DNA of 64,000 nucleotides from Candidatus Bathyarchaeia archaeon (GCA_049512075.1 JBEKXL010000001.1:323462-387461); one strand, 5' to 3'; counted from the first letter of the stretch, positions 12,666 through 63,846 are shown. Notes: generated by a model not told the origin, from the letters alone. Numbers and translations: made by a program.

Positions 12666-12774
12666 ACAAAAAAGGCGTTTAAGCAGACATCAGCATGAAA
12701 GGGCCCTTTTATAAAAACTAACCTTATAGGTGGACCGATCAGACCTGCTTCAAATCAAAAGTTCTCGCGCGCGC

Positions 12775-13035
12775 CACCTGCACACACTCAGACATTGGAA
12801 AGCAACCATGGAATTCTACAGAACCAAGAACATCAAATTCGTCCAGAACATCCTTGGCCACAAGAAGCTTGAAAACACCGACGTGTACACCCATCTCATA
12901 AACTTTGAAAGCGACGAATGGCACGTAGCTCACGCCAGAAACTTGGAAGAGGAAAATAAATTAATAGAGGCAGGCTTTGAATACGTACGCTACAGCGAAA
13001 AAGACGAAGTCGCCATATACCGCAAACGAAAGTAA
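12775..13035 (+). pseudogene. C-terminal fragment of a tyrosine recombinase/integrase
   Basis: HTLRHW..VQNILGHKKLENTDVYTH (HxxR, H, catalytic Y); homology begins right after cgcgcgcgc at 12766-12774; lies just upstream of the tRNA. Confidence 0.85.
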
Positions 13036-13076
13036 TCGCCACGGGCTATTTCCAAACCTCAGTAGTATTACTCAGG

Positions 13077-13154
13077 GCTCCGGTAGTATAGTCCGGTTAA
13101 GTATTCCGGCCTTTCGAGCCGGAGACCCGGGTCCAAATCCCGGCCGGAGCACCA
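13077..13154 (+). tRNA. tRNA-Glu(UUC), intronless, encoded CCA
   Basis: Acceptor GCTCCGG/CCGGAGC-A-CCA, anticodon arm CCGGC-CTTTCGA-GCCGG, T-arm CCGGG-TCCAAAT-CCCGG. Confidence 0.95.
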
Positions 13155-13318
13155 AAGAACTTTCTCTTAGCGCGCGCTGGGATTTGAACATTAGACCAAG
13201 TGAAGAAATCTTCCGCACAAACACTTTTTTTCTTTTAGCCCGCGTGGAGGTGATCCCATCTGAGAAAAATAAATACAGATCAACCAAACCGCGGCGCTAT
13301 TGTAGCTAGCTAGCTAGC

Positions 13319-13411: not shown

Positions 13412-13785
13412 GAAAGAGACTTACGCCCGAGAAGTGCGCATGTGCATGCAACATGTCCTTTTCTTAAGGCGCGGGCGCTAAATACGAGACCTCAACCCAA
13501 GAATAAATGTTAACCAATTTCGGGACAAGCCAGCGCGCGCTATGGAGAGAGACTGAGGTTAAAGTGAATCTTAGCTATAAGGGGCTCTGTCAACTCTTCG
13601 GGACTTGAATGATAGCGCCGCGCTACCTTAGAACCGAAAGCGGTTTAGTTCGTGCTTCTTTCGCGCGCGCGAATGTGCGGAATGTTGCTCAAAGGAGCTA
13701 CTGATTTAGCCCGCACTACCGATGATGCCGCAAACTTGAGTGAAACTTATAAAGAAACCAAGCGACTTTCATAAGGGCGAAATCC

Positions 13786-14067
13786 ATGTCCGAACCTTCA
13801 GCCCGTGCTAACCCTGACGATTTAGAAATGTTAAAACTTTTCAGAACGCGACAAGACGCGCGTGCGCGCGAAATAGCACGCGCGCTAAGGATTTCGGGCA
13901 TAATCCTTCTCGTCATTGGTCTGTTAGTAGCGGTTGGACAAACTTTCAACATAATAAGTGAATTCTATTATGAAACAGAGTTGCTAGGCAGCTTGTGTTG
14001 GATCGCTGTCGGAATGGCAATTGAGTTCTTCGGCATAGGTCTAATTATCGTTAGCAAAGAAAAATAG
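13786..14067 (+). CDS. Small 2-TM membrane protein, possibly chimeric
   Basis: Two hydrophobic helices; internal GCGC-palindrome cluster at 13856-13888; TAG stop is part of tagcgagcgc. Confidence 0.5.
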   Translation: MSEPSARANPDDLEMLKLFRTRQDARAREIARALRISGIILLVIGLLVAVGQTFNIISEFYYETELLGSLCWIAVGMAIEFFGIGLIIVSKEK

Positions 14068-14292
14068 CGAGCGCCATAAACACAAGCGCGCGCGCTGTTC
14101 GAGAGACATCTCCACTTGTCTTGGGTTCAAATCCCAAAGACCCTGCAACCTAAACAAAAAAAGGGCGCGCGGTTGAGCTGGAGACGTTGTGAGGGGATTA
14201 ACCCGTTGTGTTTGATTGCGTAAGTAAAGGATTTATTCGGCGAATACTCCAGAGGTTTGGCTATATTGGTTTGTTGTGAAGGGGGACGGGAA

Positions 14293-14787
14293 ATGAAGTC
14301 GGCTTTGCTCGTAATTGATGTGCAGAAGGAGTTTTTCAACATCAGTCAGACATGTTCTGACTCTTTGAAGTCGGCGGTTGAATACATAAATGCGACAATC
14401 GCCCTCTTTAGAAAGAAAAGTTTACCCGTCTTTGTCATACAACATAGGAGTGACAAGGAGGGCCTCGTACCAGGAAAACCAGGTTTTGACGTTCCTGAGA
14501 GTTTGAAGGTTGAGCCTCAGGATACACGCATAGTCAAGACCTATGGTAACTCATTTGTGAAAACTGGTCTTGAAGAGAAACTCAGAGAACTTGGAGTTGA
14601 CACGGTATTCGTGACTGGGTTTTGTGCAGAATTCTGCGTTTTATCCACGTATAGAGGTGCTGAGAACCTTGACTTCGTGCCGATAATAGTAAAGGGTTCT
14701 ATCGCTTCGGACAATATAGAACACATCAGGTTCGTGGAAGAGATCAGCGAAACCATTTCTCTCGGCGCATTGAAAACTCTTCTCTAA
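14293..14787 (+). CDS. Isochorismatase-family cysteine hydrolase
   Basis: ALLVIDVQKEF, KTYGNSF, VTGFCAEFCVLST. Confidence 0.9.
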   Translation: MKSALLVIDVQKEFFNISQTCSDSLKSAVEYINATIALFRKKSLPVFVIQHRSDKEGLVPGKPGFDVPESLKVEPQDTRIVKTYGNSFVKTGLEEKLRELGVDTVFVTGFCAEFCVLSTYRGAENLDFVPIIVKGSIASDNIEHIRFVEEISETISLGALKTLL

Positions 14788-15141
14788 TTCTATTCTTTAG
14801 CGCGCGCTTTCTGTCAGTTGGTTGTAAGAACAACCTTCCCCACTCTCAGCACGCTAACCTTATTTGGTATAGATAGCAGCGACCCTGAATCTGAACAAAA
14901 AAGGGAAATTTCGGTAGAAATTACAGTCTGGGAACGGTAACTCCCGGGCTACCACTCCTGGACTCCGCGAGCACACAGCAACTGTATCTGCACCTAATTA
15001 GGTATGAATCCCCACCGATCCACGTAGTGAATATATAGACGGTATTGCCTAGTAACTCATACCACATGGAGCAATGGAGGTTGGTGTTCATGCGAAAATT
15101 GAGGAGTTTAGAAGAAGGAAAAGAACCGGACTTAAAGTCTG

Positions 15142-15296: not shown

Positions 15297-18200
15297 TTAC
15301 TTGCGCTTCTGTAGGTCTTCTTTCCTAATAAGTAGCTCGTTCTCTAGATGGTCCCGATTGCTCATCTTCTTGATCTTCAGGAATTTTTCTAGGCCTTTCT
15401 CTGTTTCTTTCTCGTGGATGTTGACCTCTCCGTCAAACAGTCCTAGAATTGCGTGAAGCTCCTCTGAAGTGTGCATTTGAGGATCTATTACTGCTAGAGT
15501 AGTGAATCCCGCTGACCGCAATTCGGGTATGAGTGCAGCGAGCCATCTTCTCGTTTGAACTACATGATGTTGAAGGAGAACGTCCGAAATTATCTCAATG
15601 CAAATCCTTCTTGGACGCTGGTGAGTCGCATCTATTTTGCGGATGGCTGAAGTTAGAGCCATGTTGATGTTTGTCAAGTTGTCTACACCGTTTATCTTGA
15701 CCACGTTGGGCAAGCTTTTGATGATCGCGTCTGCCTGAGGATTACACACGAAGAGGCAGAAGTTTGAGGGGAACTCCTCCGCGAGTATCTTACAGTCACA
15801 CATACCAGGGTCGATGGTGACATGAAATGTCTCTTCACCCCTTTTTGCCCCCGTCTCAAGAAAACTCCTGACCAGTAAACCCCTCACGTCGTAGGAAGGT
15901 GAGGTCAAAGCCACCGCGTAGTTTTCGGGTATCCCCCCACACAAAAGCCCGTCAAGGCCTGCGTACCCAGTAGCGATGTGACCGGGAATACCCTCCGAGA
16001 CTTCTGCGGCGGGTTCGGACTTCGAGACCACTTCCCGCGCAGTTTCTTCGCGAACCATTCTTGACCTTGTTTTTTCTACCCTCTTGATCGCACCGATCTC
16101 CTGATATATGCCAAGTGCTTGGTTCAACAGCGAAAAGGCTCTTTCTTCATCGCCCTCTTCGTTCCTTTCCAGATGCGTTGAGCCGTATTCGTACAGAAGA
16201 TCAGCGAATGGTTCGACGTACCATTTCTGTGCATCCACGGATTTATATCCTTGAAAGCTCTTTTCGAAGTGTTGTATTGATTGTTCCCAGTTTTTCTGCT
16301 CTCTCAAGAGCATTGCTTTCAACATTTCGACTTCGGCCATAACAAGCTTGTTTTTGGCTTTTGCTGCGTACGCACGGATCTTCTCGATCAGTTCCCTGGC
16401 CTTTTCACTTTCGCCTTTTTTCAGATACAACTTCGAAAGCTTAGGCAGCACTAGTAGAACCTGGGTGTCTACGTCTCCTGCTTCTTGATATGCGCTGTTG
16501 GATTCATTAAGGTACTTCTCTGCTTCCCCGTAGTCTTCCATTTCCATGAACAATTCGCCAAGCCCGACGCCCGCTTCTGCAGAAAACTGGTATTCTCCTA
16601 CTCTTCTTGCCATGTCATAGGCTTCCCTCAGATACTGAAGACTCTTCTCCCATTCTCCTAAGACGAGATAGCATACGCCAATACCGGTCAATGGGACCGA
16701 AACATGGGCGGTGTATTTGGCTCTCTTGTCAAATGCCAAAATTTCTTCAAACATGGACATTGCTCTCTGGATTTCGCCCATGTACGCATAGCTTGAAGCC
16801 AACATCACATCAAGCCAGGCTAAGCCGTATAAGCCGCCAACTTTTCTCACGAACTCCGACCCTTTCTGAGCGGTTTCAAATGATTTTTGAAGCTCTCCAA
16901 TGCTACCGTAAAGTGTGGCAAGGTTGTTGTAGAAATTCGTAGCGTACCCTACCAAGTTATTCTTGAGAGCCATCTTCAGCCCTTGCTCGTAGTATTGCAG
17001 AGCCTTTTCATGTTCGCCAGATTTCAGACTTATCGTCCCCAAGTCATTATAGCACCCTGTGAGGACTTGTTGGTTGCCTAGCCTCTCTGCGAGTTCAAAG
17101 GCTTTCTGTGCCCAAGACAATGCTTCAGGTTTGCCACTTCGCCAAAGCATGTGTGAGATGTCTTCATATAGACCGGCTAGTTCCGCACTTTCAGGCTCTT
17201 TTTGAAGTATTTCCAAAGCCATGTTATGATGCTTAGAAGCAATGTCCTTGTCCCCAGCATTCTGCCAGAACAGTGATCCCATCCATCCGTGAAGTCGTGC
17301 ACTGTTTTTCTTGTCTTCTAGCTGGTCCCACAAATCCAATGCTCTATCCCAGTATTCCAAGCAGACGCGTGGTTCGCCCATCCACCATTTGAGGCTACCA
17401 AGCCTTTCAATTATGCGCGCCTTCTTCTCAAGATTATCTCCTTGTTCTTCGAGAAGCTCAAGGGCATGCTGAAGGTAAGAAAAGGCCTCATTGTGAGCAT
17501 AAACTCTCTGCGCTTTTTCCCCTGCCTTCAAGAAGTATTCAAGCGCCTTGTCCTTGTCACCAGCCTCCAAGAAGTGGTAAGCCAGTTCCCCAAAATGTTG
17601 ATCAACACTACTAGCATAGACTTTCTCCAAAGCATTTCCAACAGAATCGTGAAGCTTCTTGTGTCGTAGATGGCTAACTTCTTCATGCACGACATCTCTC
17701 ACCATTACATCAGCGAAACAGTACACATCTTCTGCACGAATCACCTTCTCCTTGACCAGTCCTGTCTTCAACATTCTTTCCATCAGTTCGAGTAATTTAT
17801 TTTCCTCAATGCCAGTCACGCCGCGTAGAGCCTCAAATGTGAAGTCGTTACCGACGAAAGAAGCCAAGGTCAGAATGCTCTGGCTTTCATCATCCAATCG
17901 GTTTATTCTTGTCTTTATTACACTCTTTACAGTTGTAGGGAACTCGATCTTTGAGACTTCCCTGATCTTCCATTGGTTCTCCTCGCGAAAGATAACGTCT
18001 TCTTCCTTCAGAGATCTCATCACTTCTTCCACGAAGAAAGGGTTCCCTCTAGTCTTCTCATAAACTAACTCACAGAACTCTTTCGGCACCTCTTCCTGCT
18101 CCAGGATCTGCCGGATCATCTCAGAAACATCATTGAGAGACATTCGCTTCAGCATGATAGGCCTCAACAGACGTTCCCTATTCAGTTCCGCCAAGACTGG

Positions 18201-18848
18201 CGACAGAGGATGCTTCTCGTCAACGTCAGTCTCACGATAAGCACCCAGAAGAAGCAATCGTGTCTTGTAGATGCCGCGCGCCAAATAGTGTAAGAGCAGA
18301 AGCGAAGTCTGATCAGTCCACTGCAAATCATCAAGAACGACCAACAACGGAGCTTCCTTACAAACGTTGACTATAAACTGGAAGACTGCCTCAAACAGCC
18401 TGTCACGCTCGTGTTCAGGACCGACAGGTAGGGACTGAGGAATCGTCCCGAGCTTTTGCCTAAGTTCAGGAACCAACTTTGCAACCTCACTTGGATAAAA
18501 GCTAACAACCCTGTACAATTGCTCTGGACTACAAGCCTCCAAATAGTCTCTTAGCACCTCGCTCCATAGAACATACGGAGGAACCCCATCCATCCTGAAC
18601 AGAGCCGGACATCTTCCATAGAGAACTTGCATCCCACGCAAGCGTGCGTAAGCACCGAGTTCTCTGGTCAGCCTCGTCTTGCCTATTCCAGCCTCTCCGG
18701 ACAGAAAAACAAGACCGCCCTGACCCTGAATTGCCCCATCAACGGCCTCCCTAAGAAGCCTCATCTCCTCAACTCTATCAATAAGCTGACTCTCTTTTAC
18801 CGCAAGAGGACGCGGGCTCGGAACAACTTCTGGCTCACGCGACGGCAC
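15297..18848 (-). CDS. STAND-type AAA ATPase + TPR repeats + C-terminal degenerate KaiC/RAD55-like domain
   Basis: GEAGIGKT, LVVLDDLQW, TRGNPFF, TPR-like helices, then TGYAGLDGLLCGGIP with Walker A replaced by TSPSYDVR. Confidence 0.85.
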   Translation of the reverse strand: MPSREPEVVPSPRPLAVKESQLIDRVEEMRLLREAVDGAIQGQGGLVFLSGEAGIGKTRLTRELGAYARLRGMQVLYGRCPALFRMDGVPPYVLWSEVLRDYLEACSPEQLYRVVSFYPSEVAKLVPELRQKLGTIPQSLPVGPEHERDRLFEAVFQFIVNVCKEAPLLVVLDDLQWTDQTSLLLLHYLARGIYKTRLLLLGAYRETDVDEKHPLSPVLAELNRERLLRPIMLKRMSLNDVSEMIRQILEQEEVPKEFCELVYEKTRGNPFFVEEVMRSLKEEDVIFREENQWKIREVSKIEFPTTVKSVIKTRINRLDDESQSILTLASFVGNDFTFEALRGVTGIEENKLLELMERMLKTGLVKEKVIRAEDVYCFADVMVRDVVHEEVSHLRHKKLHDSVGNALEKVYASSVDQHFGELAYHFLEAGDKDKALEYFLKAGEKAQRVYAHNEAFSYLQHALELLEEQGDNLEKKARIIERLGSLKWWMGEPRVCLEYWDRALDLWDQLEDKKNSARLHGWMGSLFWQNAGDKDIASKHHNMALEILQKEPESAELAGLYEDISHMLWRSGKPEALSWAQKAFELAERLGNQQVLTGCYNDLGTISLKSGEHEKALQYYEQGLKMALKNNLVGYATNFYNNLATLYGSIGELQKSFETAQKGSEFVRKVGGLYGLAWLDVMLASSYAYMGEIQRAMSMFEEILAFDKRAKYTAHVSVPLTGIGVCYLVLGEWEKSLQYLREAYDMARRVGEYQFSAEAGVGLGELFMEMEDYGEAEKYLNESNSAYQEAGDVDTQVLLVLPKLSKLYLKKGESEKARELIEKIRAYAAKAKNKLVMAEVEMLKAMLLREQKNWEQSIQHFEKSFQGYKSVDAQKWYVEPFADLLYEYGSTHLERNEEGDEERAFSLLNQALGIYQEIGAIKRVEKTRSRMVREETAREVVSKSEPAAEVSEGIPGHIATGYAGLDGLLCGGIPENYAVALTSPSYDVRGLLVRSFLETGAKRGEETFHVTIDPGMCDCKILAEEFPSNFCLFVCNPQADAIIKSLPNVVKINGVDNLTNINMALTSAIRKIDATHQRPRRICIEIISDVLLQHHVVQTRRWLAALIPELRSAGFTTLAVIDPQMHTSEELHAILGLFDGEVNIHEKETEKGLEKFLKIKKMSNRDHLENELLIRKEDLQKRK

Positions 18849-18988: not shown

Positions 18989-19107
18989 CAAGCGCGCGCT
19001 GGGAGAGTTTCGAACCCTCGCCGAGCACAGGCAAGCATACTTTTTCCGGCAAATTCGTGTTCTGATAAGGGCTAGAGCACCATTTTGACGAGGTCAAGAG
19101 AGAGATA
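18989..19107 (+). repeat. ~120-bp direct repeat, copy 1
   Basis: Matches 45477-45596 with 6 differences counted by eye; starts with caagcgcgcgct. Confidence 0.9.
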
Positions 19108-19205
19108 TCGAGAAAAAGACGTGCTTTCACATGTTCTAGTTTCCTAGGAGAAAAGTTATAGTCCAGTTTGGCTCTGTTACGAGCAGGATGTAGAAGGCAA
19201 TTTGT

Positions 19206-20192
19206 CTGGGCAAATATCTGGCTGTAGACCGAATCGAATTCATCGTAACCTATCTCTGCAACTCAAGCTGTAGCCATTGCCAACTCAGTGAAGAAGAGAA
19301 AGGGAAGAGGTTTCCAAGTCATGTTGACAAGGACAAGACTGTCGAGATTGTCAGAAAGGTCGGACAAGCGTATGCTCCAAAATCAATCATGACGTTTGGA
19401 GGAGAGCCTCTGCTCTATCCTGAAATCGTCTGCGCAATCCACGAACAAGCAAAGAAAGTGGGTATTCCCATTCGAGAAGTCATCACGAGCGGTTTCTGGT
19501 CGACAAGAGCAGAGAAGATTCAGGAAATCGCCCAGAACCTCGCGAAATCTGGTGTTAATGAAGTCTCAATCTCGGTTGACTGCTTTCATCAAGAATTCAT
19601 TCCGCTTAAGACCGTTAAGAAGGCCGCGAATTCACTCATTGCGGCAGGAATTGAGCGCGTAAGCTGGAATCCTTGTTGGGTCGTGTCTAAAGGTCATGAC
19701 AACAAATACAATCGCAGAACCAAGACAATCCTGCAGAAACTCCGCAATCTGCAAGTGGAAGAGAGTGAAGGAAACAGCGTGCAGCCCAAAGGAAGAGCCC
19801 GTTCATCTTTAACAGAATTCTTTCCACTGAGAACGCCAGTGCCGAAGGGAAAATGTGGCGAGATGCCCTACACGGAAGCGCTTGATTCAGTCAAAACAAT
19901 TTCCGTAGAACCAGACGGAAGAGTTGCTGTCTGCGAGAATTTCTACATCGGAAACGCGTTCAAATCCGACATCATTGATATCCTAGAGAACTATGACCCG
20001 TTCAAGATTCCTGAAGCCAAATCAATACTCGAAAAAGGCATGAACGGACTGATAAAATGGGCAAAGAACAGAGACGTCGAGCCAAGGCCTGAGGGATACT
20101 ACAACATCTGTCACATGTGCACCGATCTTCGAGAAAGAGCAAGCACCGCATGCTCGAATTCTTCAACCCACCGGCTACCAGTAAAAGATTAG
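19206..20192 (+). CDS. Radical SAM protein
   Basis: CNSSCSHC (CxxxCxxC) in frame upstream of ATG 19389; TFGGEPLL, ISVDCFH; start inferred at CTG 19206 (in-frame stop at 19191). Confidence 0.82.
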   Translation: MGKYLAVDRIEFIVTYLCNSSCSHCQLSEEEKGKRFPSHVDKDKTVEIVRKVGQAYAPKSIMTFGGEPLLYPEIVCAIHEQAKKVGIPIREVITSGFWSTRAEKIQEIAQNLAKSGVNEVSISVDCFHQEFIPLKTVKKAANSLIAAGIERVSWNPCWVVSKGHDNKYNRRTKTILQKLRNLQVEESEGNSVQPKGRARSSLTEFFPLRTPVPKGKCGEMPYTEALDSVKTISVEPDGRVAVCENFYIGNAFKSDIIDILENYDPFKIPEAKSILEKGMNGLIKWAKNRDVEPRPEGYYNICHMCTDLRERASTACSNSSTHRLPVKD

Positions 20193-20218
20193 CGCACGCG
20201 CTTTTGGGTTTTGGGCTT

Positions 20219-20596: not shown

Positions 20597-23500
20597 TTAG
20601 CTGGTTAAGTAGCTGCAGTAGATGCTGTACGCGCGATCTTTGAAACCTGCATAGGTAAGTGAGTTGGTGGGAAAGCTTGCCAGCGAAGTAGTTCCATAGA
20701 TAGACTGGTTCGTGCTTCCCGTGCTGTAGTAGAACCGCAGGGTCTTTCCAGAAGCCATAGCGTCAACTACGAGCCAATAGTACGCGCCTGCAGAAAGGTT
20801 AGGCGTCGTTGTCAAGGCTACGGTCACCCAGCCATTTGTTCCTGCTGGAACCGTTCCAGTTCCAGAGGCCAATAGGTTGCCAGGCGCTCCGCCAGCGTCA
20901 CTGTAGATGCCGACCTTCACGGTTCTGGCTTCGCCGTTTCCCTCTGAAACCCGAATCGATATGCTCTGAGCCACCCCATTCTTGGAAACTTGGTACCTGC
21001 TCCCGTAAAAGTATTGGCACAGGTTCGTTTGGCTTGCGCCCACGTCAATCTTGCCGAACGTTTCAGTGACTCCGGCGTTTGCCGTTTGGAAACTCCAGCT
21101 GCAAGGCACCAAGCTCTTGGCAGTCTTACTTTGGGCAGCAGCTGAAATCGAAATCGTGTAGAGTGTTCCCTGCGCCAAGCTCGCGTTTGGAGTGAAAGTC
21201 ATCACCGTATCGCCTACGGTCCAGGTGAAGCTGCCTGAAACGGACGGACTGATGGTGAACGCGTTCTGAGTGGAGGTTTGGTCCATTGGCTCGCTGAACG
21301 TGACTTGGATGGAAGTGGATGTGGAGACGCCGGTCGCGTCGCTGCTGGGGACGTGGTTGACAACGGTGGGTGCGGAGGGTGCGGTGGTTAGGTAGGTGCA
21401 GTAGATGCTGTAGACGCGAGCGTTGCGAGCTGAATATTGGCATGGATTTGCTGGGAAACTGGCATAGCTCGTAGTGCCGTAGACTCCTTGGTTTGTGGCT
21501 CCAGTGCTGTAATAGAACCTGAGAGTCTTACCTGACACTTTGGCGTCGGCCATTAGCCAATAGTAGGCGCCTGCGGAGAGTGATGGCTTGCTTGTGAGAT
21601 TTACGGTTACCCAGCCTAAGTAGTTGGCAGAAACGGTTGCTGTTCCTTGGGCAATAAGGGTAGATGGAACACCAGCGTTATCGCTGTATAGGGCTACTTT
21701 CAGAGCTGTAGCCGAACCCGTGGCTTCCTGAACGTAGAGGGTCAAGCTCTGCGCGACTCCGTTTTCGGTCATCTGGTATCTGCTTCCATAGGAATACGCG
21801 CAGAGGTTACTGACGCTGGAGCCGATGTCTTTTTTGCCGAACGTTCCTGATGTCTGCCCGGCTTGTTCTGTTGTGAAGCCCCAGGCGCTGGGTGACAGCA
21901 TGTTTTGGCCCAGCTGGTCTTTGGCGCCTGTGGATATCGTTATTGTGTAGAGTGTTTGGTAAACAAGGCTTGAAGACGGAGAGAAAGTGAGGACTGCATC
22001 ACCTGAACTCCAAGTGAAGCTGCCCGAGACTGATGGGTTCACCGTGAAAGCGTTTTGAACCGAAGACGTGTCCATTGGTTCGCTGAAAGTCACTTGTATG
22101 CTTGATGTCACAGCAACGTTGGTCGCGTTTGCTATTGGAACGTGACTGGACACGTAAGGTGGAGTAGGCACCTGAGGCTCCGGACCTACGTAAGCCCGTG
22201 AAACTACGACACAGTCACAAAAGACAGTTGTGCTCGCACAGTTGGTGATCTGAGGGAGCCCGAAAGCCACTTGGGTAAGGGCTCCGTACGTGCCTGTGTT
22301 TACTCCGGTGATTGAACAGACAAGGGAGCCGTCCACCCATAATTCGCCCAAACCAGCTGCGGCGTCCTCCTTCCAGTGAAGCTCAACGCAGTACCAGTGG
22401 TTCATTGAGGGAACGTTGGCAGAATAGGCGTAGACATAGCTTGTCCCACTCCTGATGACAAGACTCCATTGGACGAGTCCACCGGTCTTCTTCCAACCTG
22501 CATAGGCTACGCTGTTTGAACCCGCCTTGAAAATGATTGTGTAGAAGCGGTCACTCTCATCAGCAATTCCAGATTGAGAAACGTAAAAGTAGCTTCTAGC
22601 ATAAAGCTCAGTGGAGGATGCCATGGTCTTGTAGGAGTATGCGTACTCTGTTCCGCCTCCCCCGTTTGAACTGTATTTTGCGCTGTAAATGCCGTGATGA
22701 GTAGGTGTGTTGGCAGTAGCTGCAATTTCACCAGAAGATACGCTTGTGCCCGTCCATGCGTTGAAGGTTCCAGATTCGAAACCATCATAAAACAGGTTGG
22801 GTGTCCAAGGCTTCATTAGAGGATAGTGGTCAATATTGTTCATATCAATTACGTAGGGAGTATCGCCGATCCCGTCGTTGTTGGTATCCGTGCCGAGATA
22901 GTCGCTCCAGTAGTTGCCTCCAAAGGAATAACCATCATCCCAAATGTTAGCATAGCCAGATGCGGGAATGTATACTGGTGTATTATTGTTGACAAAGTTG
23001 TTATGGAGGATTTTGTTGCTTGAAGAAGAGTCAACAACAATGCCATATTGGTTGTTCGCTATGTTGTTTCCAGAAATGCTGTTGAAAGAAGAAGAGTAAA
23101 GAATGATGCCAGATTCGTTGTTTGCTGCGTTGTTTCCAGAAATGCTGTTGAAAGAAGAAGAGTAAAGAATGATGCCAGATTCGTTGTTTGCTGCGTTGTT
23201 TCCAGAAATGCTGTTGAAAGAAGAAGAGCCAAGCCAGAAGCCGTATTCGTTATTTGTTGCGTTGTTTTCAGAAACATTGTTATTTGAAGAATAATAAAGG
23301 ATGATGCCGTAGTAGCTGTCTGTCATGCTGTTTCCCGAAATGCTGTTGTTTGAAGAATAATAAAGATAAACACCATAACAATTGCTTGTTATGATGTTCC
23401 CACTAATATTATTGCCAGTAACCGTAATGCAATAGATTCCACAGGGCGATCCATTCGTTCCACTGTTTCGAATTGTGAAGCCACTGACTTTGACCAAGTT

Positions 23501-25198: not shown

Positions 25199-25372
25199 TT
25201 AGTATGCAAATCCTCCCGAATAGTATGATTGATATTTCGTCTGTTCGTTTTTAAGACTTGTGATAAATAGCTCTAGGCACAGTGAACGCGTTTCTGATTG
25301 AATCTAGATTCCTTCGGGCATATGATGGATGAGAGCAGAGCATAATTGAATAAATGTTAACGCGCGCGTGCT

Positions 25373-26398: not shown

Positions 26399-26430
26399 CT
26401 ACCTTCCACTCCTCGGGCGCGTGCATCAAA

Positions 26431-27039: not shown

Positions 27040-27059
27040 TATAGACTATCTCCAATTAG

Positions 27060-27095
27060 AATATAGCCATAATTTATATATATACCTTCCCATTT
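27060..27095. promoter_or_regulatory. AT-rich divergent promoter region
   Basis: TATA-like tttatatata at ~27073-27084 between divergent starts 27039 and 27118. Confidence 0.5.
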
Positions 27096-27117
27096 ATGCA
27101 TTTCGGAGAAAACAAAT

Positions 27118-27726: not shown

Positions 27727-27805
27727 CTTCATGAGAAGGCAAACGAAACCTACCCCTTTCTTAGTTTTTGAAAAACAGAAGAAAACCTGAGAGTAGTGTT
27801 CAGAC

Positions 27806-45476: not shown

Positions 45477-45596
45477 CAAGCGCGCGCTGGGAGAGTTTCG
45501 AACCCTCGCCGAGCACAAGGCAAGCATACCTTTTCCGGCAAATTCGTTTTCTGATAATGGCTAGAGCACTATTTTGATGAGGTCAAGAGAGAGATA
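45477..45596 (+). repeat. ~120-bp direct repeat, copy 2
   Basis: Matches 18989-19107. Confidence 0.9.
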
Positions 45597-52556: not shown

Positions 52557-52852
52557 AGCCAGAAAACCTCGTCAAAGCAAGATTAAAACTTTTACCCAAC
52601 CAAAACCAACGAACCCGGGATTCGTTCTCGCAGGCATGAGCGCTAGTCTATCCATCTTGTGACCTCGTGTGGGCGCGGCCGTCTAGAGGGAGGAGGAATC
52701 ATGTCGGCGTATCCTGTGAGGCGCGCGCGCTCTTGTGCAATTAGAGCCTGATGGTTGAATCAGTTGTTATTCCACAAGCAACAAGATCCACAAGAAATAA
52801 GAACATAGTATCTGATAGTGTTCTATTGATAGGGTAATATGGAGAAGTCTCC

Positions 52853-55800: not shown

Positions 55801-56356
55801 GGTCAAGAGCTTTCTTGAGACAGGGGCAAAGAAGGGTGAAATTGTATTCTATGTCACGACAGATCCCGGTGGGCTGAAGCCTCTCGCAGGAGAGTTCCAG
55901 TCAAACCTCTACCTCTTTGTCTGCAATCCTCAAGCAGATGCAATTGTCAAGGAAGCACTTAACATATTCAAACTGAAGGGCGTAGAAAACCTCACCGACA
56001 TCAGCATCGCTTTGACCTCAGCAATCCGCAAACTGGACCCTTCGCTCAAGGGCCCGAGAAGAATATGCATAGACCTAGTCTCAGATGTTCTGCTGCAGCA
56101 TCATGCAGTTAAAACGAGAAGATGGCTAACTGCACTTATTCCAGAGTTGAAATCAGCAGGATTCACCACTCTAGCAGTAGTAGACCCACGGATGCACCCT
56201 TCAGAGGAGCTTTACGCAATTATAGGACTGTTTGAAGGAGAAATCGACATCTACGAAAAGGAAACAGAGAAAGGTGTAGAAAAGTTCCTGAAGATCAAGA
56301 AGATGAGCAATCAGGGGTATCTAGAGAACGAATTGCTTCTAACGAAAGCAGGATAA
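52853..56356 (+). CDS. STAND-type AAA ATPase + TPR + degenerate KaiC/RAD55-like domain (paralogue of 15297-18848)
   Basis: GEAGIGKT, LVVLDDLQW, TRGNPFF, TGYADLDKLLLGGIP..TSPSCDER. Confidence 0.85.
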   Translation: MTSLERDRVPSARPITAKEAPLVDRLEEMNILKEAIYRAVHGEGGLVFLHGEAGIGKTRLTRELSAYARLHGVQVLYGRCPALFRMDGVPPYILWKEVIKDYLEACTPEQLYRVVGYYPAEVAKLVPEISQKLRSIPQSFPISPEQEQNRLFEAVSQFVTNISRETPLLVVLDDLQWTDPSSLLLLHYLARDVQKSSLLLLGAYRSTDIDSKHPLTPVLAELKRERLPQSVSLKRMSLENTSEMIRQIFEQDDIPPEFCRLVYDKTRGNPFFVEEVIESLKEEGVIYREENRWAIKEISEIEFPETVKSVLKTRFARLDEECQSVLTFASFVGNDFTLEAMCALTGIEENKLLELMDRMLKTGLIKEREIRGEGVCSFADILVRDVVYDEVSLLKRKKLHRVVGCALEKVYAKKIDEHFGELASHFLESGDKDKALDYFLKAGDKAAKIYANIEASSYFQSALKLLEEKEGETREKARVLERLGDIKRLVGEYETCLKNWTEGLQLWNQLCEKADVARLHRKIANVLWEEMGDAGKAKEHLDNALKILEAEPENIELASLYEEMAHMYYRVGDMAKALSWAEKALELAKKLNAHQVVASSCASLGTIFSFTGDMNKSRECLERALKIALDKGYVDTALRTYQNLAGALPAEENERTLECYEKGLELAKKVGDVSYQSWIGLTLAWRYIGMGNMNKALALVDESVALDRKAGNMTQLSSSIDGLGIVYQILGEWDKSEQCHSEASNISQGLNDWQAIVFNCWALGWLHLEKGEYVKARELLEKACEVSEKAGAEFYQTSNSQWLVWTYIELGEIDKANSLIDSLQKFAFEKEDKGLIVTADMLRARLLSAQKEWEKSIELFEKSLQEHEALNARRWNVYLFAKWVLVEYARAYLERNADGDREKARSLLGQALETFQKMGAKKDVEKVEAKLLYIETGQVASVPKPLGLVATGYADLDKLLLGGIPPSYAVVLTSPSCDERDFLVKSFLETGAKKGEIVFYVTTDPGGLKPLAGEFQSNLYLFVCNPQADAIVKEALNIFKLKGVENLTDISIALTSAIRKLDPSLKGPRRICIDLVSDVLLQHHAVKTRRWLTALIPELKSAGFTTLAVVDPRMHPSEELYAIIGLFEGEIDIYEKETEKGVEKFLKIKKMSNQGYLENELLLTKAG

Positions 56357-56863
56357 ATGTTAGCAGCGTGAGCCGTATACTCGATTCCGATACTACCGAT
56401 ATACGTACCCTATTATGATACTGATTATTCCCTACTCCCTTGATTACTGCAGTCAATCACTATATACTGAACCGTGTATACACTGCTCTCTCACTAGCCT
56501 CTTCTGAAGCCACCAGCATCGTCGTTTTGGTTTGGTTGGGGTAAAATTTTATCCCTGCACACAGAATTCTCAAAAGCAAAAGAAATCAAAAGCTGACGTT
56601 TCACCAGTGCTTAAGCTTTGACATTCGGTTCTGAAGCCAAGCGTCTCAAGGTTTCGAGGAACTTCTGTGGTGCCTTTGGGAGAATGGTTTTCCATTTATG
56701 TACGTTGCACATATGTGATTCGTCTACGAATGGCTTCTTCAGGGCATGCCCACAGGTTGCATTCTTCAATTGGTATTTCTTTGTTCACTTTTCTGATTTC
56801 AGCCTTAGCGCGCGCGAATCGCACCGAAAGTTACTTTAACGTTCACTTCAGAAGCAAATGGAT

Positions 56864-57055
56864 ATGAATTCGCTAGGTGCAAAGGCTGCAGGAACTGTTG
56901 TCATCCTATTCGGTTGGTTGGCAATTATCGTGCTTTACCTTGCGTTTTTTGCCGGAGGCTTTGACTTTTGGCAGAAACTGGCAATATTCATCGCTTCAGG
57001 AGCGGTTGTTATCGCCATAGTTTCTGTAATATGGATAAAATGGGCACTCAAATGA
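56864..57055 (+). CDS. Small 2-TM membrane protein
   Basis: Two TM helices, FDFWQKLAI. Confidence 0.55.
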   Translation: MNSLGAKAAGTVVILFGWLAIIVLYLAFFAGGFDFWQKLAIFIASGAVVIAIVSVIWIKWALK

Positions 57056-59893: not shown

Positions 59894-59906
59894 AGGTGAA
59901 GCCTGG

Positions 59907-60692: not shown

Positions 60693-61015
60693 ATAAAAGA
60701 TTGTCTAAGACTAAAAAATGTATTCTCCTGTCTTCTGGGACAATTGACGCGGAAGCATCGACCCCAGCAAGGCTGAAAGATCTCTGACTCTTTGTCTTTG
60801 GCTCCGCCAATGCACATGAAACCTCTTTGCAGAGTCAGTCGTTCAAATCAGGGTTCTGTTAAGTCTCAGGGTGACTCTTCTCCTGTTAACTGTCGGGTGA
60901 TACCACCATGGAATCCATGAGCACGCGCTGACATTTCAGATACTCTTTTATCGTGTGCACGTACAGAGTTACATAGTTATAGCAACAGACACGGGTATTT
61001 GCGGTTGGGTGGATT

Positions 61016-63277
61016 ATGGTTGGCGATTTCTTTCTGGGGTTTACAGGTCATGCACATACAAGGAACGATTTGGAAGCCGATCCGGTCAAGGATGTGCAAC
61101 TGAGAAAAGAGAATAGCATTGAGGAAGTTCAAAGATTGACCGAAGCGGTTCTGGACAAGCTTGGGAAGGACATTTCTGACGCTGGGCGCGGCTTGGAAGA
61201 TGTGAAGTTGCTGGTTCTCTACCTGAGTTATAGGGGCGAAACTGAAGAAAAGGACAGACTCATCAGTGAGAGCGTTTTGAGAGTCATAGAGAAAAGGTTC
61301 AGAGGAAAGACTGTGGCCGAACAGCTTCGCCTGATTGGCCATACGACGGCTGGCGAGATAGAAAATGAGGACCTTGAGTTGAAAGATGTCTCAGGGATTG
61401 GCTACAACGGCCTGTCTCTTCTGGCCCTAGTTACCAATCTCCCTGTTGGAATCGGGCGAACATGGGGGGTCGAAACGGAAAAAGAAGCTGTGGAAAATGG
61501 CAGTGAAATGGCTCATGACGCTTGGGTTGACTTCAGTCAAAGCACAGAGTCGAAAGAGCATCTTCAAAAAAGCAAGACTCTTCTCGTACTGGCAAAGGGA
61601 CCAATGATTGGGAAAATTGGGTATGAGTATTTCCTGACTGAGGGCATTGCAGACTTTGTGAGAAGTGCCCGTGAAGCGCGAATAGCAAATGTGTTAGGAG
61701 GATGTAGCGGTGATGGCATCATCGGTCAGCACATGCATCAGTTTTATGGCAGGATCGGCAGACAATCAGAACTGAAAGTTCTTGATAATGACGCTGTGTG
61801 CGCCTTGATCCCTAGCATTGTTGAGCCCTCATTTGGTCTTGACGTGTCACCGGTCAGAAGGATTGGAGGGTCATATGTCTTTCACTTTGACCCTGATGCA
61901 GAACCGAAGTTCAAGTACCTGAAGCGGATAGGGGATAAGGATCCTCGGGAGGTACATGCCAGAACAATATACGAAAACGAAGCTCAAATATCTCACGAAA
62001 GAGGGTTGCCCGCAATCAGTGAAAAAGAGTTCTTCCAACAGATTTCCGAGATTGATGGAATCCCTTTGAATCTGACTCTGGCTAAGTATGCTTTTGCTTT
62101 TCCTTTTGGAAACTATGCCCCGGCAAGCCTTATACGCGTGCATGGACAGACTGTGGAACTTCTTCAGCCTATTAGAAGCCATGACCCTTCTATACCTGGC
62201 TATGTCGTCGTGGTTGATCATGAGAAGGTCCAAAAGGGGGCACGGAACGTGTTCAACATGCTTAGGGAGAATCGAGGCTTCAGGGAGAGAGACACTACAC
62301 TCATAGTGACTTGTGTTTCTCGGAGACTGGCGGAGATGATTGCTGGATGCAACTCGAATACAGAGTGTCAGATTTTCAAGGAGGCGCTTTCTTCAACGCA
62401 AGTGATGGGGTTTATCGCCTATGGTGAGTTGTCTTTTACGCATCTCTTGCAAGAACCTTTTGTTTACAACTTCAGTTGTTGGGGAATGACACTTCGCTCT
62501 CTGGAGGATGGAAGACAAGGCAAGCGTGGAAAGTCGGCGGGCACAGCGTTGGAAAGAAAGAGACTCGTTCAGGAACAAAAGGATGTCGGTGTTGAAGAGG
62601 GCGTGAAACGTTGCCGCAGCGGATACGCTGATCTTGACAGGTTGTTGTGCGGTGGAATACCTGAAAACTGTGCGGTCGCGTTGACTGCGCCTTCATGCGA
62701 CGAAAGGGAGCTGCTGGTGAAATGTTTTCTTGAGGCTGGAGCGAGAAAAGGAGAACTCACATTCTTTCTCACCGTTGACCCGAGTAATGCAAAATCGTTG
62801 GTAGAGGAGTGTCAATCTAACTTCTACCTCTTCGTGTGTAATCCCCAGGCAGACGCAGTCGTCAAAAGCTCAGCCAACGTGTTCAAGTTGAAGGGAGTGG
62901 AAAACCTCACCGACATCGGCATCGCCTTGACTTCGGCCATCCGCAAACTAGACCCTTCGCAAAAGAGCCCAAGAAGAATCTGCATAGACCTAATCTCAGA
63001 TATTCTGCTACAACACCACGCAGTCCAAACTAGAAGATGGTTGACAGGACTCATTACAGAATTGAAGTCAACTGGATTCACCACTCTGGCGGTAGTGGAT
63101 CCTCAGATGCACCCTTCAGAGGAGCTTCACGCAATTCTAGGGCTGTTCGAAGGCGAGATCAGCGTTTACGAGAAAGAAACTGGAAGAGGTTTGAGAAAAT
63201 GCTTGAAGATCAAGAAAATGAGCAACCACAAATACCTTGAAGAAGAGCTGTTTCTGAGCAAAGTTCGGAAGGTCTGA
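61016..63277 (+). CDS. FIST-like sensor domain + degenerate KaiC/RAD55-like domain
   Basis: LIGHTTAGEI, LGGCSGD, TCVSRR, GFIAYGE (FIST N/C motifs); SGYADLDRLLCGGIP..TAPSCDER. Confidence 0.75.
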   Translation: MVGDFFLGFTGHAHTRNDLEADPVKDVQLRKENSIEEVQRLTEAVLDKLGKDISDAGRGLEDVKLLVLYLSYRGETEEKDRLISESVLRVIEKRFRGKTVAEQLRLIGHTTAGEIENEDLELKDVSGIGYNGLSLLALVTNLPVGIGRTWGVETEKEAVENGSEMAHDAWVDFSQSTESKEHLQKSKTLLVLAKGPMIGKIGYEYFLTEGIADFVRSAREARIANVLGGCSGDGIIGQHMHQFYGRIGRQSELKVLDNDAVCALIPSIVEPSFGLDVSPVRRIGGSYVFHFDPDAEPKFKYLKRIGDKDPREVHARTIYENEAQISHERGLPAISEKEFFQQISEIDGIPLNLTLAKYAFAFPFGNYAPASLIRVHGQTVELLQPIRSHDPSIPGYVVVVDHEKVQKGARNVFNMLRENRGFRERDTTLIVTCVSRRLAEMIAGCNSNTECQIFKEALSSTQVMGFIAYGELSFTHLLQEPFVYNFSCWGMTLRSLEDGRQGKRGKSAGTALERKRLVQEQKDVGVEEGVKRCRSGYADLDRLLCGGIPENCAVALTAPSCDERELLVKCFLEAGARKGELTFFLTVDPSNAKSLVEECQSNFYLFVCNPQADAVVKSSANVFKLKGVENLTDIGIALTSAIRKLDPSQKSPRRICIDLISDILLQHHAVQTRRWLTGLITELKSTGFTTLAVVDPQMHPSEELHAILGLFEGEISVYEKETGRGLRKCLKIKKMSNHKYLEEELFLSKVRKV

Positions 63278-63387
63278 ATCAGTCAAGCAATCTTCTTTAT
63301 TATGGCTAGTGCGCGCGACTAATCTAGCATGTTTACCTTTTGAAAAAGCTTATCTCAAAGCTTCATACAAATGGATGTCAATTGAAG

Positions 63388-63846
63388 ATGCGGATAATGC
63401 CCGAGACAGGCGTGATTTTAGAGATTGATCATCCACATTTCGTCATCAGGCTTGATGAAGATTTGCTAAAAATAGATGTGAAGGGAAGCTTCAAAGACGA
63501 AGTTGAGGAAGCACTTGAAAACACCCCGATTCTCAAAGAAACAATAGGCGGCATCTTTGGCTTGTTTGCCCCGCTGCACGTTCGCCTAAGCGACATGGAC
63601 TCGGCGCGAATAGAAGAGACAGGAAAAGTGAAAATAGTCCTTCCGCGCCGCAGAGATATAACCATTTCAATCGAAGCGAAAGAGGCAAAAAGGCTTGTAG
63701 ACAAGCTGAATGAGTTGATACCAGCAGCAAAGCAAAGAGAATTAGAGCGTATCGTTACAGAGAACAAGCTCCAGAAAGTTGCAAAAGAGGAAATCGAAGG
63801 GCTAAAACAATGGCAATGCTCGCGAGCGCGAAACTCCCAGGGTTGA
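63388..63846 (+). CDS. Hypothetical protein
   Basis: Protein-like ORF; 3' end runs into ctcgcgagcgcg and may be truncated. Confidence 0.55.
   Translation: MRIMPETGVILEIDHPHFVIRLDEDLLKIDVKGSFKDEVEEALENTPILKETIGGIFGLFAPLHVRLSDMDSARIEETGKVKIVLPRRRDITISIEAKEAKRLVDKLNELIPAAKQRELERIVTENKLQKVAKEEIEGLKQWQCSRARNSQG

Follow-up and report, generated by a model that had tools for sequence, protein, structure and literature searches.

The window, a 64,000-nt stretch of the genome of a Candidatus Bathyarchaeia archaeon, is punctuated by short palindromic runs of alternating G and C. The host is a peat archaeon of the class Bathyarchaeia. The octamer GCGCGCGC gives 27 overlapping matches in the window, against 0.76 expected and a shuffle maximum of 4, and 21 loci of (GC)≥4 are present. 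A preliminary description had counted about 40 copies by eye; we found 44 alternating G/C runs of at least 6 nt. The two copies that it called perfect, at 33204 and 38706, are exact matches to the 12-mer TAGCGCGCGCTA, which occurs twice here and never in shuffles, and all the variant positions that it listed are present, that at 20190 being the imperfect AGCGCACGCGCT. The loci are mostly intergenic, as it had proposed, with 19 of 21 lying between gene calls and the remaining 2 within gene remnants. Its remark that the motif is scarce in the first part of the window was correct as an observation, the first 12.7 kb containing no (GC)4 but four GCGCGC, and says little alone: only 1,684 nt there are intergenic, in which ~1.4 loci would be expected. 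In the remainder of the window, 8,879 nt are intergenic and carry 19 intergenic loci, ~2.5 times the intergenic density of the genome.

Several copies closely follow genes. A (GC)4 at 13170–13177 lies 16 nt past a tRNA-Glu, a (GC)5 at 14086–14095 lies 18 nt past the ORF at 13786–14067, and (GC)4 copies at 14800–14807 and 35085–35092 lie 12 nt past an isochorismatase-family gene (14257–14787) and 7 nt past the ORF at 34517–35077, respectively. Other intergenic copies are (GC)4 at 13533–13540, 18992–18999, 33272–33279 and 45480–45487, (GC)5 at 34393–34402, 38019–38028 and 52721–52730, an alternating 10-nt run at 13662–13671, and GCGCGCGCG at 56808–56816. A further (GC)4, at 33206–33213, lies inside the first perfect TAGCGCGCGCTA. 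The degenerate AGCGCACGCGCT (20191–20202) stands at the exact end, 20191, of homology to the related genomes G002 and G003.

Three truncated genes break at the motif, each as first described. The integrase remnant (ORF 12730–13035) has a Pfam match that starts at residue 13, which corresponds to nt 12766, the first base of CGCGCGCGC (12766–12774). A second cas1, on the plus strand downstream of a (GC)5 at 37349–37358, retains only its N-terminal 84 residues (37627–37878); homology to Cas1 residues 1–84 ends at 37878, within GCGCGCGCG at 37875–37883. A minus-strand C-terminal piece of a surface protein, homologous to the 3′ end of the gene at 20597–25198, spans 32076–32369 and is severed 5 nt short of the (GC)4 at 32374–32381 that caps it. 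The description had also placed the intact solo cas1 (25373–26398, minus strand) alone between two copies, which does not hold: CGCGCGCG (25361–25368) lies 4 nt past its stop codon, and on the other side the next motif is at 32374, 7 kb away.

Motif copies enclose two gene-sized segments of the window whose location changes from species to species, which supports the proposal that the motif delimits cassettes. The first (38716–40085, plus strand) contains a single glycosyltransferase gene (38814–40007) and is bordered on the left by the (GC)4 at 38708–38715, within the second perfect TAGCGCGCGCTA, and on the right by GCGCGC at 40086–40091. It is present at 92–95% identity in four species (the window's genome, G000, and G001, G002 and G004), with unrelated flanks in each; outside the segment, identity to G004 is ~82–86%. 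Its right end varies by copy and is motif-capped in G000 and G002. The second (60929–63310, plus strand) encodes a FIST domain with a KaiC-like ATPase (61016–63277) between a degenerate GCACGCGC (60921–60928) and GCGCGCG (63311–63317). At the orthologous site G002 lacks this segment and has one CGCGCGCGC; the segment is found at three other places (in G002, in G001 and in a contig of sequencing run X7), every time with GC runs at its ends. Inside the genome itself, a second copy matching end to end exists for only 15 of 294 motif-to-motif segments, compared with 5 of 293 shifted controls, and a single family accounts for most of these 15.

Chimeric joins made at a low-complexity word during assembly or binning could in principle mimic such junctions, since every genome considered here is a metagenome bin, with G000 in 86 contigs and G001–G004 being draft bins. 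An X1 contig of 7,131 nt and an independent X6 contig of 10 kb, from two runs of different studies, cross both borders of the FIST-KaiC segment. Because contigs from an independent sample bridge these junctions, they are not assembly chimeras. Identical borders also recur in independent genomes, and to our knowledge assemblers use much longer words and are not misled by one of 10 bases. We consider an artefact scarcely credible.

Across the whole 2.73-Mb genome, GCGCGCGC is the top-ranking 8-mer, with 646 matches against 29.9 expected from an order-1 and 44.6 from an order-3 Markov model. The matches collapse into 547 loci, 449 intergenic, 9 at gene edges and 89 coding. With gene boundaries taken from a crude home-made caller, 84% of loci are intergenic or at gene edges, although 80.3% of the genome is called coding, and motif density outside genes is 21 times that inside. 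Tandem, divergent and convergent spacers carry 0.89, 0.76 and 0.95 loci per kb, which we call equal, and in this comparison the motif favored neither an orientation nor a position with respect to genes. Sites are dispersed across all contigs, with spacings from <25 nt to >20 kb and no mode. Alternating runs of 8, 9 and 10 nt number 284, 186 and 105; past 10 there is a sharp cut-off, lengths of 11, 12 and 13 being represented by only 3, 2 and 1 runs. The run is usually flanked A...T, and an A/T preference at the two adjoining bases is the only conserved context. Alignment of 450 + 93 loci revealed no shared sequence around the core, positions beyond ±2–3 nt being random, and no stem extending beyond it, flank complementarity being at chance (~0.25) by offset 3.

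Because only these two adjoining bases show any preference, the motif is not a MITE or a REP element. MITEs have a conserved interior, terminal inverted repeats and a target-site duplication; a MITE-like family does exist, separate from the bare motif. REP/BIME elements and REPINs with their RAYTs likewise comprise hundreds of lineage-specific, intergenic palindromic copies, and REP elements are associated with sites of rearrangement and insertion. REPs are 20–40-nt imperfect hairpins with a conserved 5′ tetranucleotide, whereas the motif core is 8–10 nt without an extended stem. The REP/RAYT system also needs a Y1 (HUH) transposase, whose domain (PF01797) was matched only in G000, G001, G002 and G014 among 31 genomes; G003, G004 and G018, all motif-rich, gave no match. 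CRISPR arrays differ as well, with regular repeats of 25–40 nt and spacers of similar length.

The motif is concentrated in variable DNA. In 784 kb of G002, split by alignment and by coding status, we counted 0.007 loci per kb in aligned coding, 0.086 in unaligned coding, 0.355 in aligned intergenic and 1.209 in unaligned intergenic DNA; in this comparison of relatives that are 95% identical, unalignable intergenic DNA carries 3.4 times the motif density of its alignable counterpart. Alignment to G000 spans 11 of 74 intergenic motif sites, compared with 276 of 600 random intergenic positions, and homology of the flanks halts near the motif or maps apart at 40 of the 74 sites, compared with 93 of the 600. 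Motif copies lie ≤15 nt from 29 of 121 alignment ends (2.5% for random intergenic positions). Around motif sites, alignments stop within a few nucleotides of the motif edge. The motif is ~6 times enriched at homology breakpoints genome-wide, and not just in the island for which it had been described as a mark of junctions and truncation points. It is mostly confined to one genome of the pair: of the 29 motif-bearing ends, 16 have it in G002 alone, 11 in G000 alone and 2 in both genomes. At the other 92 of 121 breakpoints neither genome has a full motif within 15 nt.

Once in place, the motif decays through point substitutions. Between G000 and G002, at ~95% identity, no more than 15 of 28 and 17 of 37 collinear sites retain it, and many of the differences are single substitutions, such as GCGTGCGC. 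Such changes, together with the hyper-abundance of an octamer palindrome and its presence in alignable spacers too, would also be expected of a compositional feature of the kind represented by HIP1 in cyanobacteria, maintained by selection (for protein binding or supercoil buffering, for example) or by a bias in methylation or repair, with the link to junctions a by-product of fast-evolving spacers. We consider this improbable. Random intergenic controls lack the breakpoint association, alignments end within nucleotides of the motif, retention at collinear sites is poor, placement relative to genes shows no preference, and the genus has no C5 methylase match. The analogy with HIP1 drawn at the outset therefore stands in part. 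HIP1 (GCGATCGC) is likewise an octamer palindrome, the most over-represented word of its genome and characteristic of a lineage. Genes often contain HIP1, and HIP1-type sites are conserved between related genomes, in genes as well as spacers; here loci are largely non-coding or at gene edges, and most sites are unconserved in close relatives such as G002. This motif, unlike HIP1, stands at rearrangement joints. HIP1 over-representation has been reported as 15- to 300-fold (PMC5861425), and reports link it to two DNA methylases (PMC4390886, PMC13756078). A GCGC methylase had been suggested here too, and in the C5 class, the one covered, PF00145 gave no match over cut-off in any of the five genomes of the genus (G000–G004).

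Truncated copies of a 271-bp unit indicate that the motif can appear at new places. This unit lies between motif copies at different loci within the genome; at least 10 distinct truncation points are motif-capped, at least 5 full copies have identical borders, and 3 copies remain in their original gene context without the motif. In 9 of 10 checks, the missing part of a truncated copy did not turn up within 10 kb. The copy in the window (47544–47690, plus strand; unit positions 77–223) is truncated on both sides and motif-capped at both ends. On its left, a (GC)5 at 47533–47542 stands in place of ~45 nt of the repeat's left arm, which G002 retains at the orthologous place; on its right, GCGCGCGCG at 47694–47702 caps the truncation, and homology to G002 stops at 47690. 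Elsewhere, G002 and the outgroup G004 share a 776-bp stretch in whose place G000 has AC-CGCGCGCG-T. These two are the only polarised replacements of deleted DNA by the motif, other cases lying in spacers that differ in every genome; segments replaced by the motif range from 36 to 904 bp. Among small indels, 4 of 10 are the motif itself, including pure insertions of 8–12 nt, and 28 of 45 simple indels do not involve it. Breakpoint enrichment, relocated segments, capped truncations and deletion replacements together support the readings of the motif as a mark of junctions and truncations and as a cassette boundary. Since the motif is mostly present in one genome of a pair and the truncation points that it caps vary, it is not only a pre-existing site of capture but is deposited where new joints form.

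This last property bears on the possibility that the palindrome is a passive fragile site. Identical 8–10-bp all-GC palindromes can pair whichever way round they lie, and ordinary end joining, microhomology-mediated or non-homologous, could then produce deletions, insertions and exchanges at them without a dedicated enzyme. Alternating GC is prone to Z-DNA formation and breakage, the motif is found at breakpoints and on both sides of insertions with one copy at the empty site, and G000, G002 and G004 carry a complete operon of LigD primase-polymerase, Ku and ligase/phosphoesterase, which few genomes of the family have (4 of 31). A fragile site cannot, however, create a motif absent from the ancestor, as in the 776-bp and repeat-arm replacements and the capped 271-bp truncations, and it does not account for the motif being in just one genome at 27 of 29 motif-bearing breakpoints. 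Nor does Ku follow the motif, being present in 3 of 12 motif-rich and 21 of 139 other genomes and not found in searches of the motif-rich G003 and G018, and the original rise of the motif to abundance is left unexplained. We regard this explanation as unlikely, while placing it first among the alternatives.

A related explanation is that the motif is a linker or filler of end joining, a self-complementary GC stretch added to broken ends as annealing tails of a few GC units or as a captured duplex oligonucleotide, so that each resulting joint would bear (GC)4–5. It would fit the pure motif insertions, the replaced segments, the capping of truncated ends at arbitrary positions, the abrupt stop of run length at 10 and the primase-polymerase in the end-joining operon of G000. 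We know of no end-joining polymerase that adds a strictly alternating GC tract, as it requires; Ku and LigD fail to follow the motif, no reverse transcriptase was found, and the small pure indels can equally be read as slippage deletions. Taken alone it also leaves the identical borders of the full 271-bp copies unexplained. We judge it rather unlikely, second among the alternatives.

The reading that we favour, tentatively and with somewhat less than even confidence, is that (GC)4–5 is a lineage-specific intergenic joint mark and that an activity cuts and rejoins DNA at the palindrome. Genomes carrying the motif would have, or would recently have had, this activity, perhaps as a transposase-, recombinase- or restriction-plus-ligation-like enzyme acting in trans, and the stretch between any two palindromes would thereby act as a cassette. 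Insertion into a palindrome would leave one copy on either side. Where a segment was lost or the event aborted, a single copy would remain as a scar, so that new sites could arise where none had existed. Known site-specific recombinases and transposases use sites much longer than this one of 8–10 bp with random flanks, and none of the candidates tested (Cas1, Ku/LigD, C5 methylase, reverse transcriptase and Y1 transposase) tracks the motif. The transposases present are low-copy (IS5-like, IS6-like, IS630-like and Y1). The occurrence of the motif where DNA has been inserted, lost or moved points to a mechanism of DNA cleavage and rejoining that is as yet undescribed.

Abundance of the motif is a trait of the lineage: each of the 5 genomes in the genus is motif-rich and most sister genera are not, and the 12 motif-rich genomes among 151 sampled Bathyarchaeia are spread over four families. 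The solo Cas1, which had been proposed as the driver and might integrate DNA at the palindrome, duplicating it as a CRISPR repeat is duplicated at spacer addition, is not supported. Genes of the solo cas1 clade occur in several copies, many of them interrupted at the motif (G000 has three full copies plus fragments, and one copy is N-truncated exactly at a (GC)5), and 5 of 12 motif-rich genomes carry some piece of the clade, as do 21 of 139 others; the genomes are related and the association is weak. Yet 7 of the 12 have no piece of it. G121, 94% complete in 5 contigs, contains 106 copies of the 10-mer but lacks a Cas1 of the clade, G018 has 227 motifs and zero Cas1 matches, and G002 has 460 motifs and Cas1 only as a broken 53-aa piece, while the motif-poor G160, G108, G082, G024, G008 and G012 hold full-length copies. 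We consider this proposal very improbable; the pattern fits a frequent passenger. A casposon would combine Cas1 and a family-B polymerase, between terminal inverted repeats and with duplication of its target. The two cas1 copies of G000 have only the ORF in common, without shared ends, and no polymerase domain was found in Pfam among cas1 neighbors.

The suggested analogy with integron attC sites holds for function only. Integron cassettes likewise are single promoter-less or whole genes between short recombination sites, arranged serially in a variable island in contexts that differ between genomes. The attC site, far longer than 8–10 bp, is a bulged hairpin of imperfect inverted repeats of tens of nucleotides, whereas the motif has no arms or hairpin and no conserved sequence or stem beyond its core. 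An integron is one contiguous array with an IntI integrase and attI, whereas motif sites are scattered genome-wide and also cap truncations and deletion scars. Integrons have been reported in Archaea (10.1101/2022.02.06.479319).

Footprints of cut-and-paste transposons are similar in leaving a short palindromic scar and in having identical short sequences flank an insert, and 8–10 bp is a typical size of target duplications. Here, in contrast, the inserted segments have no common ends, inverted repeats or transposase, and the duplicated word is always identical. In Fusarium mitochondria, short optional intergenic (A)n(T)n palindromes have been described whose presence accompanies nearby indels and SNPs (PMC7218506). 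Those are A/T homopolymer palindromes of an organelle, and no cassette behavior is reported for them. The GC clusters of yeast mitochondria are reported as strain-optional, GC-rich palindromes in AT-richer intergenic DNA that proliferate, decay fast and cross species, and as recombination hot spots for insertion and deletion of large fragments, by a mechanism given as unresolved (PMC4478555). They are described as hairpin-forming sequences of ~30–60 nt, such as the 42-nt GC42, with putative target-site duplications (PMC4478555). Our motif differs in being a bare alternating run of 8–10 nt on an archaeal chromosome, without a stem beyond the core, and resembles them in GC-rich palindromy, intergenic placement, optional presence and a presumed role as a recombination hot spot.

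The palindrome at issue is an alternating G/C run of 8 to 10 nt, (GC)4–5, with the core GCGCGCGC. This core has 27 overlapping matches in the window, compared with 0.76 expected from shuffles, and the perfect 12-mer TAGCGCGCGCTA occurs exactly twice, at 33204 and 38706, just as the preliminary description had it. There are 21 loci of (GC)≥4 and 44 alternating runs of at least 6 nt. Nineteen of the 21 loci lie between gene calls, and the other two fall in gene remnants, one from the C terminus of an integrase and one from the N terminus of cas1. By Pfam content, positions 1–10120 hold ordinary genes (amino-acid permease, HD-domain protein, aconitase X). Beyond tRNA-Glu (13077–13154) the window is a mosaic that includes two large AAA-TPR-KaiC proteins, a 1,533-aa surface protein, a solo cas1 (25373–26398), ABC transporters, a glycosyltransferase, a hydrolase, and a FIST-KaiC protein, among others.

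The window spans C1:323462-387461 of its source genome (G000; 2.73 Mb, 86 contigs, 47.5% G+C), and the DNA is present in metagenome runs from peat, wetland, and sediment. GCGCGCGC is its commonest 8-mer, with 646 matches against Markov expectations of 29.9 (order 1) and 44.6 (order 3); the next three 8-mers are one-base shifts of the same word, and the best unrelated word reaches 319. The 547 motif loci divide into 451 (GC)4, 93 (GC)5, and 3 (GC)6, and alternating runs number 284 of length 8, 186 of 9, and 105 of 10, then 3, 2, and 1 of lengths 11, 12, and 13. Relative to gene calls from a crude, home-made caller (2,714 calls, 80.3% coding), 449 loci are intergenic, 9 lie at a gene edge, and 89 lie inside genes, with densities of 0.85 per kb in intergenic and 0.04 per kb in coding DNA. 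The excess first noticed by eye is thus strong throughout the genome and mainly intergenic.

Motif density was alike in tandem, divergent, and convergent spacers (0.89, 0.76, and 0.95 per kb), which argues against a promoter or terminator role, and we rejected that role. The nearest flanking bases are nonrandom, with A at −1 (0.52, and 0.67 for (GC)5), T at +1 (0.50 and 0.72, respectively), and T at −2 and A at +2 at about 0.4 each; flank complementarity is at chance level from the third position outward. Because the flanks are random beyond these positions, the motif is not a MITE, a REP-like hairpin, or an attC-like site, and an extended hairpin or cruciform was rejected since complementarity does not continue past ±2. 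A Tc1/IS630-type footprint (TA, ends, TA) was dropped because TA flanks only about one-third of the sides. REP/RAYT systems share with the motif their intergenic palindromic copies but differ in size and enzyme, integrons share the cassette logic but differ in their site, and the likeness to HIP1 is confined to hyper-abundance.

We compared the genome with 784 kb of G002, a relative that is ~95% identical where aligned and that, like the other relatives compared, is a draft bin of a separate species. Intergenic motif density in G002 is 0.355 per kb in aligned and 1.209 per kb in unaligned DNA (Fisher P = 8e-10), so that unalignable spacers are 3.4 times richer in the motif than alignable ones; the corresponding coding densities are 0.007 and 0.086 per kb. 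In the first 384 kb of G002, a G000 alignment spans 11 of 74 intergenic motif sites, compared with 276 of 600 random intergenic positions (P = 9e-8). Flank homology stops near the motif, or the two flanks map apart, at 40 of the 74 sites as against 93 of the 600 (P = 2e-12), and alignment ends in this stretch bunch a few bases from motif edges. The 66 longest alignments supplied 121 ends, 29 of them within 15 nt of a motif (16 in G002 only, 11 in G000 only, and 2 in both). Random intergenic positions are that close in 2.5% of cases, and the enrichment at breakpoints is about sixfold. Within the window, homology to relatives stops at 20191, where a degenerate motif lies, and at 47690, with a motif 3 nt farther on; the counterparts of 19135, 45719, and 52597 carry a motif in G002 and none in G000. 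The proposal that the palindrome marks junctions and breakpoints is therefore borne out as an enrichment, although the 92 ends without a motif mean that it covers a minority of breakpoints.

How such sites originate can be followed in a 271-bp repeat unit, composed of a dockerin-coding gene tail and a MITE-like core of ~160 bp, which BLAST finds in 37 copies in G000. Five or more full copies, situated at unrelated loci, are flanked on both sides by GCGCGCGC, and three copies still continuous with the original gene context lack the motif. Ten or more copies are cut at differing internal positions, with a motif 0 to 5 nt beyond the cut; the window copy (47544–47690) is one of these and is cut on both sides, and at its orthologous place G002 retains ~45 nt of left arm in the position taken by (GC)5 in G000. 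Mere interruption of these copies by another insert was rejected, as in 9 of 10 checks the missing part was absent within 10 kb, the sole match being part of another copy. Elsewhere, AC-CGCGCGCG-T stands in G000 in place of a 776-bp stretch that both G002 and the outgroup G004 possess. Only two replacement events are polarized; five further ones (36 to 904 bp) are not, and for the four tried with outgroups each genome has a different spacer. Small indels within alignments are the motif itself in 4 of 10 cases, and collinear sites differ by exact insertions of 8 to 12 nt and by many single substitutions.

Together, the truncations, replacements, motif-sized indels, and substitutions indicate that the motif arises at new joints and later decays. 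Recombination among pre-existing sites alone cannot explain this pattern. A passive process, in which Z-DNA and microhomology act at the palindrome, would account for exchange at sites already present but leaves the birth of new sites unaccounted for, and we consider it rather unlikely. The capping of arbitrary truncation points that have no partner nearby leaves room for a GC filler or linker added at end joining, an explanation that on balance we find improbable. As side observations on the repeat, the word ATTACATCTGACATTACAA is present twice in the MITE-like core (47544–47690; C13:8740-9010 of G000), the 12-mers of this core are the commonest non-GC words in the genome, and dozens of copies of it occur in G001 and G002.

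In the window, two single-gene stretches bracketed by motif copies occupy other places in related species. In the G002 sample, 17 of 45 simple indels relative to G000 have a GC run at the insert end or in the empty site; the 28 without a motif look like ordinary insertion elements. One segment (60929–63310) contains a single gene encoding FIST and a KaiC-like ATPase, with GCACGCGC at the left border of the segment in G000 and GCGCGCG at its right border. It is missing at the orthologous place in G002, where one CGCGCGCGC is found. Copies occur elsewhere on G002 contig C6 and G001 contig C1 (94–95% identical) and on a contig of metagenome run X7 (93%), in every case amid unrelated flanks and with a GC run at the segment border. 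A contig of run X1, which shows no differences, and a 10-kb contig of the independent run X6 span the two borders as arranged in G000, so these junctions are real and not assembly chimeras.

A second segment (38716–40085), encoding a glycosyltransferase, starts at a perfect 12-mer. It is 92–95% identical in G001, G002, and G004, with different flanks in each, while G004 is 82–86% identical elsewhere. This difference, together with the changing flanks, speaks for a probable recent transfer between species. The left border lies at a motif in G000, G001, and G002 (where its form is GCGTGCGC); on the right, three of the four copies end differently, and a direct motif cap is present in G000 and G002. 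The notion of cassettes thus gained ground, since single-gene segments with GC-run borders sit amid different flanks in other genomes.

The reading we lean toward, at somewhat short of an even chance, is that a palindrome-specific cut-and-rejoin activity, supplied in trans, would generate the motif pattern. We observe the pattern of joints and infer the enzyme and its chemistry. Such an activity would yield identical borders of moved units, a single motif at empty sites, solo scars, and a patchy phylogenetic spread; it leaves the motif caps at truncation points without a nearby partner unaccounted for, which keeps the filler or linker explanation alive. Under a cut-and-rejoin activity, ordinary genes flanked by two motif copies would move as cassettes within genomes and between species. 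A broader proposal is possible but distinctly tentative: several Bathyarchaeia lineages may have a new joining system that leaves 8 to 10 bp of (GC)n at every joint and reuses it as an orientation-free recombination site, with the genes between as mobile cassettes. If so, such a system would capture genes much as an integron does, yet lack attC, IntI, and any fixed platform.

The suggestion that the solo Cas1 drives the motif did not hold up. G002 has only a broken piece of this Cas1 clade, motif-rich G018 has no match, the clade is missing altogether from 7 of the 12 motif-rich genomes in the class sample, and full-length copies occur in motif-poor genomes. Some piece of the clade is found in 5 of 12 motif-rich and 21 of 139 other class genomes, which include related genomes, and this weak excess fits a passenger gene. 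G000 itself carries three full copies and fragments, one copy being N-terminally truncated exactly at (GC)5; relatives of its Cas1 are all titled Candidatus Bathyarchaeia/Bathyarchaeota. The solo cas1 is followed, within 25373–28705, by a 202-aa ORF without a Pfam match, a ribbon-helix-helix protein, and a 299-aa ORF without a match; a second G000 copy has none of these neighbors.

Other candidates fared no better. The envisaged co-occurrence with a GCGC methyltransferase found no counterpart of the C5 type (PF00145) above cut-off in the genus, and reverse transcriptase (PF00078) is found in 0 of 31 genomes. Neither the Y1 transposase (PF01797; 4 of 31 genomes) nor the IS630-type DDE_3 (PF13358; 2 of 31) tracks the motif. 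Ku (PF02735) and the LigD primase-polymerase (PF21686) are present in the same 4 of 31 genomes and do not track it either; across the class, Ku occurs in 24 of 151 genomes (3 of 12 motif-rich and 21 of 139 others). G000 does encode a complete bacterial-type NHEJ operon (C16:5124-8191, locus L086), with LigD primase-polymerase, Ku, and an ATP-dependent ligase fused to a 3′-phosphoesterase. A high-copy transposase with GC ends was rejected by all-against-all blastp of the 2,714 calls, which returned IS5-like and IS6-like genes only, at low copy. The largest paralog families are surface proteins and eight TATA-binding protein genes (for example, C1:104874-105440), whose products of 186–197 aa share at least 60% pairwise identity.

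Gene exchange among genomes of the Bathyarchaeia, an abundant and largely uncultured group, is little understood. All five genomes of the genus (G000–G004) are motif-rich, with 168 to 646 matches; the other 26 relatives mostly have 0 to 30. G018, from another genus and with 40% G+C, has 227, also intergenic and with A/T flanks. A comparison of G000 with 60 kb of G018, too small a sample, gave conserved housekeeping-like matches only and no unusually similar common gene. In an evenly drawn sample of 151 class genomes, AGCGCGCGCT reaches at least 24 copies in 12 genomes of four families, counts that include related genomes and are not independent, and the reversed control word stays at or below 5 in these. 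The genomes ranked as motif-rich are G000–G004, G018, G099, G104, G107, G113, G115, G117, G119, G121, G142, G164, and G172. The distribution is patchy, which opens the question to phyletic profiling. In family f24, the reversed word TCGCGCGCGA exceeds AGCGCGCGCT in G088, G102, G141, and G138 (15 v 2, 13 v 2, 26 v 9, and 14 v 9, respectively) and may be a sister motif of opposite phase and flanks.

A literature search that mostly covered journals outside subscription, and is no proof of absence, did not turn up any account of GCGCGCGC or (GC)n repeats in archaea. The closest analog in behavior appears to be the mobile GC clusters of yeast mitochondria, described as optional, proliferating, fast-decaying intergenic palindromes of unresolved mechanism, and as recombination hot spots through which large fragments are gained and lost (PMC4478555). 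Those clusters differ in being hairpins several times longer than the motif.

One short word predicts genome plasticity here, in the form of unalignable spacers, breakpoints, and the edges of genes that move from species to species. If the motif is the work of an enzyme, that enzyme would bring a new chemistry of minimal-site recombination or transposition and might serve as a tool; otherwise, the motif would be a natural example of Z-DNA-prone microhomology shaping an entire chromosome. Either way, the motif is a practical marker of recently moved DNA in these genomes.

Several further features of the window were observed. At 10094–10120, 2.95 kb ahead of the intact gene, 27 nt from the 5′ portion of tRNA-Glu are duplicated, and in G001, G002, and G004 the tRNA gene directly adjoins the counterpart of 10120. 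Thus, 10121–13076 is an integrated element, which now retains only an integrase C-terminal remnant (12730–13035) and a pRiA4b ORF-3-like gene. One X6 contig departs from the window at 45596 and continues with sequence as at ~19106–19135, and another joins 52595 to 57006 at a depth of 2.96; both arrangements resemble the gene order of G002, and uncovered stretches and low-depth joints such as the latter were left out of the evidence. The last 127 nt (63874–64000, the end of contig C1) are a multicopy repeat with at least four copies in G002, and in G001 a Y1 transposase gene of the IS200/IS605 type lies next to it; the contig probably breaks off within a Y1-associated repeat element of this kind. 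Y1 genes number two full and three partial in G000. Finally, two giant paralogs are encoded at 15297–18848 and 52853–56356, each combining an AAA_16 ATPase and TPR repeats with a KaiC-like/DUF7504 domain at the C terminus; more copies occur in G002 and G004, and the C-terminal module is also found in the FIST-KaiC cassette protein.
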